DNA of 64,000 bases from Endomicrobiales bacterium (GTDB taxonomy: Bacteria > Elusimicrobiota > Endomicrobiia > Endomicrobiales > CAWCFT01): positions 64,001-128,000 of the forward strand of contig CAWCFT010000009.1 of NCBI GenBank assembly GCA_963794945.1, in the 5' to 3' direction. Position numbers: made by a program. This document shows positions 18,901-30,900 of the stretch, one piece after another. How positions within the stretch are numbered: position 1 is the stretch's first letter; every line of letters starts with the position of its first letter.

Positions 18901-21900
18901 CATCACAAGCCCCGGCCCAACTTCTTCGTTTATTGAGAATAATTCTAATTCTTTGCCGAGCTTTCTGTGATCGCGCTTCTTTGCTTCTTCTATTCTGGCG
19001 AGGTACTCTTTGAGCTCTTCTTTCGTAAAGAACGCCGTTCCATATATCCTCTGGAGCTGCTCGCGTTTCTCGTCGCCGCGCCAATATGCGCCTGCTATCG
19101 AAAGAAGCTTAAAGAACCTCAGCTTGCCCGTAGCCTCAACGTGAGGCCCGCGGCAAAGGTCAATGAAATCGCCTGATGTATAAAAAGTAATTTTCTGCCC
19201 TTTGAGTTCTTTTATAAGCTCAACTTTATATTTCTCGCCCTTAGAAGCAAAATATTCTTCCGCTTCATCGCTTGTCTTTTCAGTGCACGCGAACTTGTAA
19301 TTCGCGTTAACTATTTCTTTCATTTTCTCTTCGATCTTTGGCAGGTCTTCAGGCACGAATGGCGTAGGCCGGTCAAAATCATAATAAAATCCGTCTTCTA
19401 TTGAAGGCCCAATAGCAACTTTTGTTTCCGGGTATAACGACACCACTGCCGCAGCCATGACATGCGCCGCCGAGTGCCTAAGTGTTTCTAGTTCTTTCTG
19501 TTTGTGCTCATTGCTCATTGATTTACCCAAGGATTTCCGGTGTGTATTTCGACTTTTCAGGTATTTAAAATTAAATGCCTAATGGCGGGTCTACCTCTGG
19601 TGGAACACGAAGCTCTGACCCTCCGCTGTTGCGAATACTCTAACCAACTATGAAAGATTTGTTGAAATGTTGGTGCCCGGTAGAGGACTCGAACCTCTGA
19701 CCCCTTCCATGTCAAGGAAGTACTCTAACCAACTGAGCTAACCGGGCATTTAAGTCGCAATACTGTTATATTTCTAGTTTTTAGACCGAAATGTTACTTC
19801 TGAAAAAACACAAGACTAGAACGTTTTTTGATTATACAAAAAATATGTCTTAAATTCAAATTTTAGTTTCTAAGATGAGAGAACATTTTCATTTTGTATC
19901 ATCGCGCCAGCCCCCTGCGCCTGCAATTACTTTCGATACAATTTAGGGGAAGCTCTAAAAGCTTTAAGTCATATTTGAAAATATTGCCCAACAGCGGGCC
20001 TTGCAATTGGCCACAAGGCCTCACCGAACCATCGACCCCAATAACTGCAAAATCCATGCCGGCATTACAGCAAGCACCTGATGATTTTTGATTTGTTTCG
20101 AGATTTATCGAACCAGATGAATCTCTTTCTTCACAAAGCATATTCATGTCATCTTGATCCTTACCCCATCTTTCCGTAATATCCATTAATTTTAGTTCTT
20201 CAATTGAATATGCGTGCGGATATTCTTTGCCATTATATTTGCCGCAGAATTGTGTCAAAGCCATATCGATATTTAAACCTTTAAAATACCTCTTGTAGTT
20301 AAGCATTTCTCTCAGTTGAAGTGGATGCGCCAGATAGCATACATTACAGATAAACCCTGCTTTTCGCAGTTTTATGACATTGCCGGCAAATTTAAAGTGA
20401 TCAGTTTTAAGAGGATGAAAAGTGGAATTAATTTCCACCTTTGAAGCGTCATTCTTTAAGATAAACTCTTCCAAAGGGACAGATAGGTTAGTTGTAACAT
20501 GAATAACATGCATTTTACTTAATTTGTATATAATATCAGCAAATCCCGGATAGAGAAAGGGCTCGCCTCCAGTAATGTATATCTTAATCGGTCCGTGCTC
20601 ATCATAAATATTTTCCCACGCGGAGCACACTTCATCCACGCTTCTGTCCGTACCATGCTGCTTTTTGATGTTATCCCATCCTGTTTGCGTAAAAAAGCAA
20701 TATTCACACTTGTAATTGCACTCATATCCCATATCCCAGGTAAATATCTTCATAAATATCTCTCTTTATCTGATTCAATAATGTTGCAATAACCATTATT
20801 AGAATTGCCGCCGCTCACACGGAAACCGGTGCCAACATGAAGCTAGCGTCATTTTGAAAGTTCCACAAAACACATCTCATTATCAGCCGCAATATCTATC
20901 AACTTAAAACCGCTGGCGGCGGCCATTCCCCCGATTTCAGTTATTCCAAGCTTATATTGTATCACATGTTTACTTACAGTCACAGAATCACTGCCAGGAC
21001 CATTATAGGATTTGCCAAGCACGGCCGACCATATCTTTCTCTTTAATACGTTAACTGCCTTCTCTTTGAGGTCGATCCACGAAATCAATATCCTCCCGTT
21101 CTGCGAAAGGCACTTTTTAAGCTTCTTTAATGTTTCAAGCTGCTTTGCGGGATCCAGAATATTAAGCATTCTGGCAAATATGATGTAGTCATATTGTTCA
21201 TCCGAATTAATGTTGTTTAAATTAATAGTTTTCACTTGCTTTCCCTGCCTTATTAATTTTGCGGCTTCTTCGGAATAGCCTCCGGACGACTGGATGTCAG
21301 CTATATTCTTTTCTAGTCCAACGTTTTGTATTTTACTTTCTGTAATCTTCAGGCTTTGCTGCCATTTTTCTAAAGATACGCCCATATTTGACCGCAATAA
21401 TATATAATTTTTATAATAGCTTAAATCGGTTTCAGGTAAAATTAACGATAGTATTGCTTTAATATTAAGGCGGAACCGCTTCAAAACAAACGAAATATAA
21501 GATAAATTTAATATATTAATCGTGATAGAACAATATAGCAACAAAATACTTATGCTTTTCCCGATCGGCGAATCGAGGTTAATTTCATATCCATTCTTTT
21601 TTATCCTCACAACTCGGCCCAGGATATCATCATAAATAACAAGCCTATCATCTTTAGCCACGTTGTTATCGCCCTTTGTGCAGAAACAAGGCCCGTTTTT
21701 GCCTTTAACCTTTTTTATAACTCTATGCGCGGTATTGATGTCCAACGACCTGTCAATATTTTCATAAACAACTATATCTCCAACACGAATTATATCGGGA
21801 GATACCTTTTTAACAAAAAGTGAATCGCCGGATATCAGAAGGGGCCACATACTTCTCCCTTTTGACTTAAATATTACCTCATTTCCTTTTACAAGCGACT

Positions 21901-27900: not shown

Positions 27901-30900
27901 TTTCTCCAAGTTGCTTGTGCTTGTTCTGAACACAACCTTTTGCTGTATCTCCTTGGCAAAGCCACATCAGTCATCTGTATGGATACAGCGTACGCAAAAA
28001 GTTCCGCGGATATACGCCGCTATAACATTTTTATAGGGCGAATACCTGGGTTGCAAGGGCTGCCATCTCCACCGCCTGTCCAGCAAGCGGTATAATCAGC
28101 GCCATTGCCAGAGCTACACATATTACCAGACGGTTGAGTCGAGCCATCTTGACAACCTGCAGGTATAGTGTATCCAGCTGCATTAAAATTGTCACCCATA
28201 TCGTTCCCAAATGTGATTTTTTCAGGCTTTATCCATTTCATGTTATTTTGATTCTTTCTGTTCTTTGTCATTTTCTTTTCCAATATTATTTATAATCACT
28301 TCTGTCCGGTTAAAAAGCGAACGCCATTGTTAGTTGGCGGTCTGTGTTTTTGATTTTAGGCAGCAATCGATCATTCAAATTAAGTAAGTCAATGAGATTG
28401 AGGCGTTCAAGAAGCGTTTCCTGAATGACTTTGTGCAGGTAGAACAGTGAATATTTATATTTTGACTGATATTTGATGTAAGACAGAAGCAAGTAGTAGC
28501 ACATGGCAATCCAGATCTGCGTAAGCACAGCGTTCTTTGAAGTGCCAAAGAATGTTTTGATTTTAAGGTTCTGCTTGATCCACTTGAAAAAGACTTCAAC
28601 TTGCCAGCGGGCTTTATAGATACCAGCAATAGTAGAAGCGGCAAGCTTGAAGTTGTTGGTAATAAAAACAAGCAGTTTATCGGTTTGCTTGTCATAGTAA
28701 CGGATCAAGCGCAGTTCTTTGGGATAATCCTGCTTCTGATAAAAGCCGTTCAAGGCGATAATTTCATCTGAAATTACGCTGTTTTTTGATGATTCAGGAT
28801 GCTGTCCGGAAACAGTGTAATTGATGTTGTCTTTGGCTCTGGTAACGAAGAAAGCGCCTACTGTGTCTATTGAATTAAACCAGGCAAAGTCTATATAGCC
28901 CTTGTCCATGCAGTAGATGCTGTCCGGCACAATGTCAAAAGAAGAACGGGCAACGGTTATTTCGTGCTTTTTGGCATCTGTGACAACCATGAACGTGGGT
29001 ATCTGCCCGGCATGGTCTAACTGGCAATGCAGTTTTATAGCCCCTTTGGTAGTGCGGAATTTTGCCCATGAAAACATTGACAGGCACAAGTCAATGACTG
29101 TGGCGTCAAAAATGAACAATGGGTTTTTAAACTTGAATTTGTGTGTAGGGGTTATATTCTTACAGCGTTCAAGCAAGGCATAAAACAACCCTTCATATAT
29201 GCGGTAGTCGCGTTTCTGGTTGGCATCGGCAAGAGTAGAACGGCGCACAATGGCAAGGCCGACATGGTAGAGCTTTCCGGCTTGCGCCAGAAAAGCATTA
29301 ACAATATCACGCAAGCTGTCCTTGCCGCTGATTTGGGCATAAAGCATGACTGTTAGTTGTTTCCAGCAATTGAAGGTTTTGACGTATCTGTCCCCGAAAT
29401 GACGAGAAACGAGGTTTTCAAAACGATGTCTCGGAATAAACGTTTGCAATTGGTTCATGATAGTGTTATAATGCATCTTATCAATCCTCCGTCAGTAGAT
29501 TTGTTCCTTTGCAGAAACATTCTACCTGATCGGGGGATTTTATTCAAATTTTAACCGGACAGGTGTGATTTATAATAATTAATAACTGCCTTTGTTCTGA
29601 AGCCCGATCACGGATTTCCGGCAATACAAACACATTATGTGAGGATCAAGTATTATCAATTATTCCATATAACTTTTTCATCGCCGTTTCGAACGTTTTT
29701 TCGCCGAAACGCCTTTTTGCCATATTAAAGGCGTTAAATGACAGCTTGTTCCAAAGCATTTCGTTATTATATACTTTTACTACCTTTTTCGCAAACTCTT
29801 CCGGCTTATCAGCGACTAAAACCTCTCTGCCGTGTTTCGCGCCTATGCCTTCGACACCGATCGAACTCGTCACAACCGGGGTCCTTGAGATCATTGAATC
29901 AACTATCTTCTTCTTTACACCCGCCCCATAACGCATGGGGCATACAAAAACACGGTATTTGCCGAGCTCATCAAAAATATCATCTACGCGCCCATGGGTC
30001 AGTAAACCTCCGCCCATTCTATGAAAATGGTCCGCCCCATTGCCTGCCACATGGAATTTTATGCTGGGGATCTTTTTTTTGATCAAAGGAAATATTTTTC
30101 TCATAAAATATTTTATAGTATCGTCATTGGCCCCTTCATTTCCGTATTGCCCGAAAAACACAAGGCCGGACCTTTCCGCGAACTTTCTCGGAACTGTTCC
30201 CTTTTCAGGAACTTCCGTGGGCGTAGGTATGATCATTATTCTTTTGCCTGGAAGTTCTTTCCTGAATATATCCCTTTCGGGCTTTGATATTGCGATTAGC
30301 GTGTCAGCCAGCTTGAGCCCTTCAAGTTCATTAATTTTACTTTTTCTAAAAAAAGAATCACGGCTTTTTACGCCGTTTATTTGCATTTCTCTTCTTTGCC
30401 TGATGTATGTGATCTCATGAGTGTCAACAATAATGCGGTTAAATAACGGCAGGCAGCTGCGGAAACCGGCTATGCAGTAATATGACCTGAATATCGCTGT
30501 TTTTATTCTGTTTTTTAAAATAAACCTGTTGATGTTTGCAACATGATTCTTATCCAACGGAAAAACAATTTTTACTCCCATATCTATAAGCGCTTTGCCG
30601 CTTAAACCACTATTCCATCGGACGGTGAGCGGCAGCAGAAACACTCTGTACCTTTTTGCCAGGCTTTTACAAAGGCGGTAAACCCTCCAGTCTCCTGCAT
30701 TAGTTTCAAAATGTGGGATATGAGTGACGACAACAAGGATGCTTTTCAAGTAACGTTCCTTTTGCTTTAGCCTTACTCTTCTTTAACTTGCATAATTCCG
30801 CGCCGTCCGCCAGTGGTGGGCCTCTACAACAGAGGCACGGCCTTCTGTTTGCTGTTTTTCATAAATGCTGTAAAATCTTCTCCCTGCTTTTCCCCACTTC

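Follow-up and report, generated by a model that had tools for sequence, protein, structure and literature searches.

A putative SynChlorMet-like RiPP locus with six tandem precursor genes and a peptide arginase homologue in an uncultured bacterium

We analyzed a 64,000-nt stretch of DNA from an uncultured bacterium (hereafter the window), in which 13 genes on the minus strand form a RiPP locus at positions 19899-28271. Six precursor genes lie in tandem, and downstream of them follow two genes for PqqD-family proteins, an ScmE-like and an ScmF-like radical SAM (rSAM)/SPASM enzyme, a peptide arginase homologue, a SipW-type peptidase fusion, and a third rSAM enzyme. The G+C content of the cluster is lowered (0.33-0.47 vs 0.458 for the window), and the low-G+C region is bounded by a tRNA-Val gene and an insertion sequence (IS). 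The first-pass annotation had read this locus as a RiPP cluster with Cys/Gly-rich precursors, and that reading held: every enzyme gene was found where it had been placed, the scores given for ScmF, ScmE, the peptide arginase, and signal peptidase I were reproduced exactly, and both of the reported PqqD genes were above the Pfam cut-off. The features are as follows.

19671..19747, minus strand: tRNA-Val, bordering the low-G+C cluster downstream
19899..20753, minus strand: third rSAM enzyme (284 aa) with a partial SPASM/twitch C-terminus (PF04055; STM4011-family 73.5 bits, below 200)
20849..21946, minus strand: SipW-type (S26) peptidase, hydrophobic segment, and methyltransferase-like C-terminal domain (365 aa; TIGR02228 E=2.4e-17, 63.2 bits, above 51.85)
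22005..22925, minus strand: peptide arginase homologue (UPF0489, 306 aa; PF12640 62.9 bits, above the cut-off of 27; NF052474 E=2.6e-47, 161.7 bits, below 350)
23187..24299, minus strand: ScmF-like rSAM/SPASM enzyme (370 aa; TIGR04251 E=1.3e-94, 317.5 bits, below the cut-off of 400), 3 nt after ScmE
24303..25337, minus strand: ScmE-like rSAM/SPASM enzyme (344 aa; TIGR04250 E=1.5e-46, 158.9 bits, below the cut-off of 400)
25534..25797, minus strand: PqqD-family protein 2 (87 aa; PF05402 E=5.3e-10), overlapping PqqD1 by 11 nt
25787..26074, minus strand: PqqD-family leader-binding protein 1 (95 aa; PF05402 E=6e-13; ScmD/WgkC-like, under the cut-offs)
26330..26539, minus strand: precursor 1 (69 aa from the ATG at 26539; 3 Cys; Arg within a C-V-R-G repeat)
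26619..26837, minus strand: precursor 2 (72 aa; 3 Cys; Arg in G-N-R-P-I)
26891..27178, minus strand: precursor 3 (95 aa; 6 Cys; single Arg)
27377..27613, minus strand: precursor 4 (78 aa; 5 Cys; Arg as the C-terminal residue)
27696..27899, minus strand: precursor 5 (67 aa; 3 Cys; single Arg in G-N-R-A; P0172), hidden beneath an antisense ORF
28020..28271, minus strand: precursor 6 (83 aa; 4 Cys, all in C-x-x-G; single Arg in G-I-R-P-I; protein P0168 in the representative library)
28285..29579, minus strand: IS4-family insertion sequence (transposase 28310-29476; NF033592 287 bits)
29646..30749, minus strand: GT1 glycosyltransferase, beyond the IS
30783..31670, minus strand: GT2 glycosyltransferase, beyond the IS

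Three precursor genes had been counted previously, but six were found: searching the DNA with a degenerate leader pattern gave exactly these six sites, with no match in 100 shuffles, and a whole-genome profile search returned just these six at E<=1e-22. All six share the leader K-W-I-K-P-E-K-I-x-F-G-N with a short basic N-terminus, and their alignment leaves K W I K P E K I, F G N, and two C..G pairs invariant. The start formerly proposed at an internal M-K-W-I-K-P-E-K-I had to be abandoned, since three of the six genes have I or T in front of K-W and each gene has an ATG 10-12 codons upstream, preceded by a purine-rich GGA/GGAG stretch. The plus-strand ORF at 27387-27929, which had been thought to interrupt the array, was rejected as a gene; it is the antisense of precursors 4 and 5, contains the leader motif as translated from the opposite strand, and gave no Pfam match.

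Close relatives of the precursors are indeed rare, as had been reported, with two other small peptides found by a profile of the six among 1.84e9 representatives; their architecture, however, is not. We screened 80 SynChlorMet (SCM)-type loci from other genomes, each defined by ScmF, for adjacent small ORFs, and obtained 50 that have a basic N-terminus and a leader of the aromatic-x-x-P type, with C-x-x-G recurring about every 10 residues. In these ORFs, 301 of 326 Cys lie in C-x-x-G, the spacing mode is 10, and A/P stands at +6 in 65%. In the six precursors, C-x-x-G accounts for all 24 core Cys (a count matched by 0 of 200000 shuffles, with 14 as their maximum), the mode of Cys spacing is 10 residues, and A/P occurs at +6 in 54% of the repeats; the core unit of ~10 residues, C-x-x-G-x-x-(A/P)-x-x-x, is present three to six times per peptide. 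Sequence similarity between the two sets is weak: the SCM-locus leader profile ranked precursors 4 (E=0.0048) and 3 (E=0.0052) first and second among 1176 window ORFs, gave E=0.14 and 1.2 for two others, and missed the remaining two, and with the NCBIfam ScmA model the top score among the six was that of precursor 4, 18.6 bits (E=0.0017; cut-off 35). Because this architecture is shared next to ScmF homologues, we assigned the six peptides, by context, to divergent ScmA-type precursors.

Each of the six cores contains exactly one Arg, contrary to the earlier statement that one precursor lacks it; the same outcome arose in 2992 of 200000 pooled shuffles. An Arg-Pro-Ile stretch, previously taken as the arginase substrate, is present in two cores, but the common denominator of all six is the single Arg. 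Arg makes up 6/330 core residues (1.8%), the same fraction as in SCM cores from loci lacking an arginase, and 26 of the 50 SCM-locus cores have no Arg at all.

Among the enzymes, relatives of PqqD1 were detected by tblastn in 44 of the 80 ScmF loci and those of PqqD2 in 16, and the ScmE-like protein is 40-50% identical to the ScmE partner in 12. The ScmF-like protein has 587 homologues at E<=1e-20 (best 64%), and its rSAM motif and seven SPASM Cys are invariant in 34 sequences; it and the ScmE-like protein both carry CX3CX2C plus the full SPASM cysteines. The arginase gene has the lowest G+C of the cluster (0.333), and its product aligns full-length to OspR (8BRP, E=1.7e-25) with all three catalytic motifs (D-E-H-N-E-S-F, D-A-H-S-D, and L-D-I-D-L-D-Y-F-A-C), the same metal-binding motifs that PMC12703449 gives as defining for peptide arginases. 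In the peptidase fusion, S32-M33, H74-R75, and G92-D93 are invariant in 11 aligned peptidases and the catalytic Ser/His/Asp positions are intact; a weak Methyltransf_12 match (E=0.0013) was also obtained. The 365-aa fusion and the third rSAM enzyme are present as annotated, but they are not standard parts of such cassettes: their best full-length relatives lie in a different PqqD/B12-rSAM/glycosyltransferase cluster of two same-order genomes, and the fusion is found among housekeeping genes in three other genomes of the order. The GT1 and GT2 genes are 38% and 38-41% identical, respectively, to glycosyltransferase genes of these clusters, and their membership in the present cluster is uncertain.

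Taken together, these results suggest that the locus is a RiPP biosynthetic cluster of the SynChlorMet-like (ScmE/ScmF) kind with an unusual tailoring set, a reading to which, including the full scheme proposed here, we assign a probability of about 0.6. Its enzymes probably cross-link the peptides, convert one Arg to ornithine, and trim them. Gene content, order, and strand, the intact catalytic motifs, and the precursor architecture with its relatives are directly observed; we infer every chemical step, the sequence of steps, and the enzyme responsible for each site as follows. One or both PqqD proteins would dock the leader K-W-I-K-P-E-K-I-x-F-G-N, a W-x-x-P type motif of the kind bound by PqqD-family recognition proteins; in PMC13381572, [Y/W]-x-x-P leaders are described as binding discrete RREs. 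Next, the diversified cores would be modified by the two rSAM/SPASM enzymes, most likely by forming one sulfur-to-carbon (thioether) cross-link per Cys and thereby a row of small rings, and the peptide arginase would convert the one Arg in each core to ornithine by hydrolysis. Leader removal would fall to the SipW-type peptidase domain, aided by a recognition protein, with cleavage either after F-G-N or after a small-x-small site that directly precedes the first Cys; PMC13381572 reports a SipW-like protein as an experimentally established RRE-dependent RiPP leader peptidase. Additional modifications may come from the third rSAM enzyme and the methyltransferase-like domain.

The ring chemistry of this scheme has a possible, if doubtful, alternative, namely a real RiPP pathway without thioether rings, with C-C or ether links, epimerisation, sulfatase-maturase-type Cys oxidation, or Cys serving as disulfides or metal ligands. 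Against the thioether synthase models (PapB, AlbA, StsB-type), the ScmE-like and ScmF-like enzymes scored 66-85 bits, with cut-offs of 340-850, haem and PQQ/mycofactocin-type SPASM models matched them equally well or better, and the invariant partner of Cys is Gly, which is not a typical side-chain acceptor. However, across all repeats of the six cores and the SCM-locus cores, no core residue is invariant except Cys and the Gly three residues on, which points to Cys as the reacting residue, and Cys-rich repeat cores with SPASM and PqqD proteins are the pattern of sulfur-to-carbon cross-linked peptides. We considered it rather unlikely that the working unit is confined to the six precursors, the two PqqD proteins, ScmE, and ScmF, with the arginase, the peptidase fusion, and the third rSAM enzyme being neighbours from mosaic rearrangement that act elsewhere or on nothing. 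No arginase was found in the 80 ScmF loci; thus, what ties the arginase to these peptides is adjacency and the Arg count. Its closest relatives, in 56 metagenome loci (35-48% identity), stand beside different rSAM/SPASM enzymes, none of these loci having an ScmE/ScmF-type enzyme (at least 40% identity over at least 200 aa). The arginase is set apart from ScmF by 261 nt and by a fall in G+C, the third rSAM enzyme is one of many paralogues (a family present in 41 of 401 phylum genomes), and the housekeeping neighbours of the fusion elsewhere fit such a separation. By contrast, the arginase, peptidase, and third rSAM genes share one strand with gaps of just 58 and 95 nt, arginases of this clade occur with Cys-containing peptides plus rSAM/SPASM, PqqD, and SipW genes (36 of the 56 loci hold such enzyme clusters), SCM-type loci normally have a SipW-type peptidase (37 of 80), of which the fusion is the only one here, and exactly one Arg is kept in all six cores.

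The IS4 element had been described as interrupting the precursor array, but its 31-nt inverted repeats (28285-28315 and 29549-29579) place it outside, next to the array at its upstream end and 13 nt ahead of the ATG of the first precursor. The insertion, whose ends show no clear target-site duplication, may have cut off the native promoter, and five further copies in the genome at 99-100% identity, making six near-identical ones, show that IS4 is active. In addition, no exporter lies inside the cluster, and ScmC was not found in the genome searched (85.9% complete). That the cluster is silenced or decaying, and yields no product in this organism, nevertheless seems improbable: all 13 reading frames are intact with their catalytic motifs kept, the outward-facing IS end holds a promoter-like site (28313-28285, 9/12 matches), although such sites are not above chance in the region, and the intergenic gaps of 196-261 nt between some cluster genes could hold further promoters.

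The SCM cassette (NCBIfam TIGR04248-TIGR04252: ScmD, ScmC, ScmE, ScmF, ScmA) is database-defined, and our literature search found no paper on the chemistry or product of SynChlorMet-type enzymes. As in that cassette, the present locus has an adjacent ScmE/ScmF-like pair, PqqD protein(s), and a SipW-type peptidase, and its small precursors combine a leader of the aromatic-x-x-P type with C-x-x-G recurring periodically in the core, but all Scm models stay below their equivalog cut-offs here (ScmF 317.5 vs 518-591 and ScmE 158.9 vs 570-579 bits in canonical loci), ScmC was not found, the leader has W instead of Y and an extra Lys, there are six precursors, and the arginase, the third rSAM enzyme, and the methyltransferase-like fusion are added. 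Sub-cut-off SCM-like loci were found in MAGs labelled Omnitrophota (L009-L016, L018, L020, and L023, of which L010, L013, and L020 were annotated). The ScmE/ScmF pairs there are 46-50% identical to those here, with similarly low scores in the three annotated loci (ScmF 337-350 and ScmE 163-166 bits), the SipW-type peptidase adjoins ScmF, the precursors have multiple C-x-x-G repeats, and L010 and L011 have two tandem PqqD genes as here. The cluster belongs to this same sub-cut-off branch, whereas the annotated loci differ in a short peptidase (157-186 aa), an ABC exporter, and one precursor each in the screen with a Y-x-P-P or Y-x-A-P leader, and L013 and L020 have a weak ScmC-like gene. Sactipeptides and ranthipeptides (PapB/freyrasin system) are thioether-cross-linked rSAM peptides that likewise combine repeated core Cys motifs, SPASM maturases, and a PqqD-type recognition element; here, however, Cys has a conserved Gly at +3 as its partner instead of an acidic or hydroxyl residue, and no thioether synthase model cut-off is reached.

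The arginase homologue resembles the PF12640 peptide arginases OspR (landornamide, PDB 8BRP), FlmR, and OhkR in its full-length homology to OspR, its metal-binding motifs, and its position beside Arg-containing precursors, but falls below the FlmR/OhkR model cut-off (161.7 vs 350), and the precursor type lies outside those listed in the accessible portion of PMC12703449 (NHLP, N11P, SCIFF, SCCRRSCN, DD(I/V)LF, and MGXRRSSE). The linear polyphosphorylated peptides (LppA/LppB/LppS; PMC13381572, Nat Commun 2026) share the SipW-like RRE-dependent leader peptidase and the [Y/W]-x-x-P leader, but that pathway phosphorylates linear peptides and uses no rSAM enzyme ('radical SAM' occurs 0 times in the text), and the present locus has no kinase. 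The closest arginase relatives belong to metagenome clusters that we call family II (e.g., L127 and L123), which hold the same enzyme classes (arginase, two rSAM/SPASM enzymes, PqqD, and SipW) and a leader starting K-K-W-x-K-P-E-L, like K-W-I-K-P-E-K-I here; their rSAM/SPASM enzymes, however, are just 21-28% identical to ScmE/ScmF, and in their precursors (50-84 aa) the junction reads P-E-E-x-V-L-x-x-C-(K/R) and the 2-5 Cys are spaced irregularly, without C-x-x-G repeats. Compared with these systems, the enzyme combination is new within an already catalogued peptide family, and the arginase is its new part.

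The cluster consists of 13 co-oriented minus-strand genes lying between a tRNA-Val gene (19671-19747) and an IS4-family element (28285-29579), in a draft genome of 2.9 Mb (19 contigs, 85.9% complete, 5.9% contamination).

Genes of the cluster, in transcription order
28271 down to 26330, minus strand: six tandem C-x-x-G repeat peptide genes (precursors 6 to 1), transcribed first
25787-26074, minus strand: PqqD1, after the precursor array
25534-25797, minus strand: PqqD2, overlapping PqqD1 by 11 nt
24303-25337, minus strand: ScmE-like radical SAM/SPASM gene
23187-24299, minus strand: ScmF-like radical SAM/SPASM gene, 3 nt further on
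22005-22925, minus strand: UPF0489 peptide-arginase homologue
20849-21946, minus strand: 365-aa SipW-type peptidase fusion
19899-20753, minus strand: 284-aa radical SAM gene (third radical SAM gene), end of the cluster

Neighboring genes are separated by 53-198 nt in the array; three junctions further on have gaps of 255, 196, and 261 nt, and the last two gaps of the cluster measure 58 and 95 nt. Between PqqD2 and the ScmE-like gene, the 196-nt gap contains an ORF of 33 aa (25370-25471, minus strand) that does not resemble the precursors and is unlikely to be a real gene. The G+C content of the individual genes was 0.33-0.47 compared with 0.458 for the window, the arginase being lowest (0.333). 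Neither promoter sites (39 vs. 28.5 ± 5.3 by chance) nor terminators (11 vs. 8.4 ± 3.0) were predicted above chance, and the tRNA was the sole match in an Rfam search. Downstream lies a thrS-infC-rplT-pheST housekeeping operon, in which pheS appears to be split between overlapping ORFs (15847-16284 and 15258-15911). Two adjoining ORFs (3743-4477 and 2289-3725) likewise seem to make up one gene of the peroxidase family (PF00141), and both cases may reflect a frameshift or an assembly error.

The first-pass annotation had described a precursor array of three genes interrupted by an IS4 transposase and by a plus-strand ORF. A degenerate leader pattern, however, occurred at six places in the window and in none of 100 shuffles, and a profile of the six precursors recovered only these six at E ≤ 1e-22 in the 2.9-Mb genome, with two further places at E = 0.023 and 0.30. 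The IS4-family element is located outside the array; it carries 31-nt inverted repeats and, because its six genomic copies (five of them elsewhere) are 99-100% identical, was probably active recently, although no clear target-site duplication was seen around the copy beside the cluster. The plus-strand ORF (27387-27929, 180 aa) is an antisense overlap of precursors 4 and 5, which explains why some precursors were missed in gene calling; neither it nor two similar ORFs had a Pfam match.

The internal M-K-W-I-K-P-E-K-I had been taken as the true start of the precursors, yet the residue before K-W is Ile or Thr in three of the six, whereas an ATG lies 10-12 codons upstream in all six, each behind a GGA/GGAG-rich stretch; thus, the leader opens with a short basic segment. 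K-W-I-K-P-E-K-I, F-G-N, and two C..G pairs are invariant. The leader-coding DNA is almost identical, but past F-G-N the precursors diverge, with a mean column identity of 39%. All 24 core Cys residues have Gly at +3, whereas the best of 200,000 shuffles reached 14; successive Cys residues lie 6-14 positions apart (mode 10), with Ala or Pro at +6 in 54% of the repeats. Each core also contains exactly one Arg, in the context C-x-x-G-x-R-(P/A) in three cores, and otherwise inside C-V-R-G, three residues before a Cys, or as the C-terminal residue (one core each). Since 2,992 of 200,000 pooled shuffles gave the same result, the single Arg is no more than suggestive. Upstream of precursors 1 and 4, but not of the other four, lie stretches of about 45 nt (26555-26600 and 27632-27677) that resemble each other, a hint of either a duplicated segment in the array or a common regulatory element.

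We searched for relatives of these peptides both directly and through the ScmF-like enzyme. Against 1.84e9 representative proteins, the six-sequence profile found 13 at E ≤ 0.001, comprising five of the window's own, six long repeat proteins, and two small peptides (P0173 and P0177), a number that agrees with the first-pass annotation. These two, on contigs of 2,366 and 952 bases, have the same leader type and four to five C-x-x-G units, and their cores are free of Arg. Searching species genomes with the back-translated leader pattern gave 63 raw matches, none of which was confirmed, and no precursor relatives were found in 60 genomes of the same order. The ScmF-like enzyme itself had 587 homologous proteins at E ≤ 1e-20, the closest being 64% and 62% identical (P0002 and P0003, the latter on an 84.8-kb contig); a scan of species-representative genomes confirmed 494 relatives, and 80 loci were kept for context. 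Across 50 of these 80 loci we observed 58 small ORFs carrying three or more C-x-x-G motifs, a few of them plainly spurious (e.g., L046 and L070). Under a stricter filter, which asked for four or more C-x-x-G motifs in addition to an aromatic-x-x-P leader, 50 ORFs passed, in which 301 of 326 Cys residues belonged to C-x-x-G, the spacing mode was 10, +6 was Ala or Pro in 65%, and the leader consensus was (K/R)-(Y/W)-x-(K/P)-P-x-(L/I)-x-(D/E/N)-(L/F). The window precursors have the same design as the ScmF-locus peptides, with a weak link at the sequence level: the ScmF-locus leader profile ranked precursors 4, 3, 5, and 6 at positions 1, 2, 3, and 5 among 1,176 window ORFs (E = 0.0048, 0.0052, 0.14, and 1.2) and missed precursors 1 and 2, and the ScmA model TIGR04252 (cut-off 35) gave 18.6 bits for precursor 4, 14.3 bits for precursor 1, and no match for the other four.

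The arginase showed a different distribution. It passes PF12640 (62.9 bits vs. a cut-off of 27), aligns over its full length with OspR, a peptide arginase of solved structure (E = 1.7e-25), and scores 161.7 bits with the FlmR/OhkR model NF052474, under the cut-off of 350. Three motifs are named as characteristic of peptide arginases in the FlmR/OhkR report (PMC12703449), and D-A-H-S-D, D-E-H-N-E-S-F, and L-D-I-D-L-D-Y-F-A-C are all kept here; where they differ, the changes are conservative and spare the metal ligands. Conversion of Arg to Orn in the adjoining precursors is thus a candidate function, suggested by the one Arg in each of the six cores. No arginase relative was present at any of the 80 ScmF loci, and among 400 further genomes of the phylum only 4 have weak ones (26-31% identity), two with internal stops. 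A protein collection yielded 46 homologues, 45 of them 36-47% identical, which led to 79 metagenome loci; 56 of these have an arginase that is 35-48% identical to the window's. A radical SAM/SPASM gene shares the contig in 36 of these 56 loci; it is 21-28% identical to ScmE/ScmF over at least 200 residues and nowhere reaches 40%. About 19 of the 56 (a regular-expression list judged by eye) have an ORF of 50-84 aa with a K-K-W-x-K-P-E-L start, P-E-E-x-V-L-x-x-C-(K/R), two to five Cys, and a core Arg; in locus L127 the gene order is PqqD, radical SAM/SPASM, precursor, arginase, radical SAM/SPASM, and SipW-type peptidase. Because the ScmF loci lack the arginase and its closest relatives stand beside other radical SAM/SPASM genes and K-K-W-x-K-P-E-L peptides, the arginase, judged by these relatives, stems from a second, distinct, unnamed radical SAM peptide family. 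Its combination with an SCM-type enzyme pair and C-x-x-G peptides was found nowhere else in the collections searched. The metagenome loci themselves (L089-L144; e.g., L127:94-5214 and L123:4725-13087) represent a recurrent RiPP-like family with an arginase, two radical SAM/SPASM genes, PqqD, and a SipW-type peptidase, and L123 additionally has a B12-radical-SAM gene, an ABC-2 exporter, and a deacetylase-like gene.

Residues 1-175 of the peptidase fusion form the SipW-type domain (TIGR02228, 63.2 bits vs. a cut-off of 51.85); Ser32-Met33, His74-Arg75, and Gly92-Asp93 are invariant in 11 aligned peptidases (this one and ten relatives, among them the short peptidases from SCM and arginase loci), and no hydrophobic segment precedes the catalytic Ser. 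A hydrophobic stretch follows, and then a 190-residue domain with weak methyltransferase matches and a degenerate first motif, without relatives in the 80 ScmF and 79 arginase loci. A word-index search with the fusion returned only one other protein, but a whole-genome search identified full-length relatives (24-33% identity), one copy each, in 16 further genomes of the order.

Conserved single-copy fusion relatives in the same order
L189:6110-7165
L190:8845-9912
L191:8972-10027
L192:8935-10029

In the genomes of L189, L191, and L192, the gene stands beside housekeeping genes (aminotransferase, queH, and ruvB, or acyl-CoA synthetases, coaD, and pilus genes), which, together with its single-copy conservation, suggests a role beyond RiPP processing. 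In two other same-order genomes (G003 and G006), the fusion gene is clustered with PqqD, B12-radical-SAM genes, the glycosyltransferase genes GT1 and GT2, and the best relatives of the third radical SAM enzyme (47% and 40% identity); no convincing precursors were found in these two clusters. Past the IS, the window's own GT1 and GT2 genes are 38% and 38-41% identical to the glycosyltransferase genes of these clusters. Of 401 genomes of the phylum (this one counted), 41 have members of the third radical SAM family, which forms tandem arrays; a single genome can have six or more paralogues (G000 contig C13:8398-19908; also G268, G003, G006, and others). One paralogue lies in a second radical-SAM-rich cluster of the window (5522-11352, minus strand), which resembles the PqqD/B12-radical-SAM/glycosyltransferase clusters of G003 and G006.

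Content of the second cluster, all minus strand
within 5522-11352: gene for a 334-aa protein
6514-7539: GT2
7611-8438: third-radical-SAM paralogue
8668-9780: radical SAM/SPASM gene
9773-10627 and 10759-11352: B12-radical-SAM gene, apparently split

Because relatives of the fusion, the third radical SAM enzyme, and the glycosyltransferases sit in the G003 and G006 clusters, and those of the arginase in another radical SAM family, the locus looks like a mosaic of three parts, namely a lineage-typical frame (the fusion, the third radical SAM enzyme, and perhaps the glycosyltransferases), an SCM-like module, and the arginase. A separate idea, that the two PqqD genes came from two different modules, arose from PqqD2 being nearest to the PqqD of the G003 and G006 clusters (29-39% identity); it was weakened by loci L010 and L011, each of which has a tandem pair of PqqD genes too.

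From these components we infer a pathway in which the PqqD protein or proteins would recognize the leader, ScmE and ScmF would modify each Cys unit, the arginase would turn the core Arg into Orn, and the peptidase domain would take off the leader. A complex prediction for PqqD1, PqqD2, and the precursor alignment scored 0.20 against a mark of 0.32, a value that bears on binding in neither direction. As ScmE/ScmF chemistry, thioether cross-links are a tentative choice at somewhat under even odds, favored on the grounds of the enzyme class and of the core sequences, in which nothing but Cys and the Gly at +3 is invariant. Both enzymes have the radical SAM CX3CX2C motif and a SPASM domain with auxiliary-cluster cysteines, and the seven SPASM Cys of ScmF are invariant in 34 homologues. 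Neither enzyme, on the other hand, matched the characterized thioether synthases (PapB, AlbA, StsB, and ScfB-related) at the equivalog level; the ScmF-like enzyme gave 84.5 bits with StsB (cut-off 625) and 74.8 with PapB (cut-off 340), and the ScmE-like enzyme gave 83.6, 75.1, and, with not_ScfB, 66.5 (cut-off 855). A different cross-link, in which the linker F-E-A-S-G-Y would mimic the Glu...Tyr site of PQQ precursors, was dropped because Glu occupies that position in only two of the six peptides. Leader cleavage may occur after F-G-N, by analogy with the Phe at -3 in the leader of linear polyphosphorylated peptides (LPP; PMC13381572), or alternatively after the small-x-small triplet right before the first Cys (A-S-G, A-A-G, V-A-A, or S-S-A).

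Taken together, we proposed, at a probability of roughly 20%, that the locus is a natural hybrid in which an ScmE/ScmF pathway and a horizontally acquired arginase would yield six ornithine-bearing peptides, with each decapeptide unit closed by an S-C bridge from Cys to the Gly at +3 or a near neighbor, and to which the glycosyltransferases might add sugars. If so, each peptide would carry a ladder of three to six very small rings, a ring topology and peptide-arginase substrate class not described so far. ScmE/ScmF cassettes are widespread and have been in family databases for years, and our literature search found no paper on the SynChlorMet or ScmE/ScmF (TIGR04248-TIGR04252) product, nor on Omnitrophota SPASM RiPPs; six natural substrates with one common leader are a handy test set for the action of ScmE/ScmF on the C-x-x-G unit. 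The locus also lengthens the short list of peptide types accompanied by peptide arginases, which is relevant to groups installing ornithine in engineered peptides, and the recurrent arginase/radical SAM family with K-K-W-x-K-P-E-L leaders points to where the arginase originated.

Two known systems serve for comparison. For the LPP system it was shown (PMC13381572) that a SipW-like peptidase can remove a RiPP leader in an RRE-dependent manner and that discrete recognition proteins bind leaders of the W-x-x-P or Y-x-x-P type. The window peptidase fits such an LppS-like type by its TIGR02228 match, its catalytic Ser/His/Asp, and the PqqD genes in its cluster; however, it is a 365-aa fusion whose orthologues also occur away from RiPP genes. 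The family scores of the first-pass annotation were all reproduced to the digit. For SCM, canonical loci in a Chlorobium MAG, a Syntrophobacterales MAG, and a Methanogenium genome, with all scores above the cut-offs, served as references. The ScmF-like enzyme (TIGR04251) reached 317.5 bits, under the cut-off of 400 and compared with 518-591 in canonical loci; the ScmE-like enzyme (TIGR04250) reached 158.9, also under 400, compared with 570-579 in the two canonical loci where this gene was scanned; and the PqqD genes reached 28.4 and 20.2 with the ScmD model TIGR04248 (cut-off 100). The HPr-kinase-like ScmC (TIGR04249), at 248-309 bits in the two of three canonical loci where it was found, gave no hit at E ≤ 0.01 across the entire 85.9%-complete genome. 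No ScmF relatives at E ≤ 1e-60 were found in 400 sampled other genomes of the phylum, with only four candidates scored per genome. By score, the window pair groups with three loci of MAGs labelled Omnitrophota (ScmF 337-350 bits, ScmE 163-166 bits), to which its identity is 46-50%; an ScmC-like gene in two of them (L013 and L020) scored at most 55 bits. An ABC exporter and a short peptidase of the SipW type are encoded in all three. No exporter lies inside the window cluster; an ABC-2 pair is located 3.5 kb upstream, past the IS and two glycosyltransferase genes. In the wide sense, by a list derived from our 80 ScmF loci rather than a published definition, every feature of an SCM-like cassette is present: adjacent ScmE-like and ScmF-like genes, PqqD, an aromatic-x-x-P leader, and C-x-x-G about every 10 residues.
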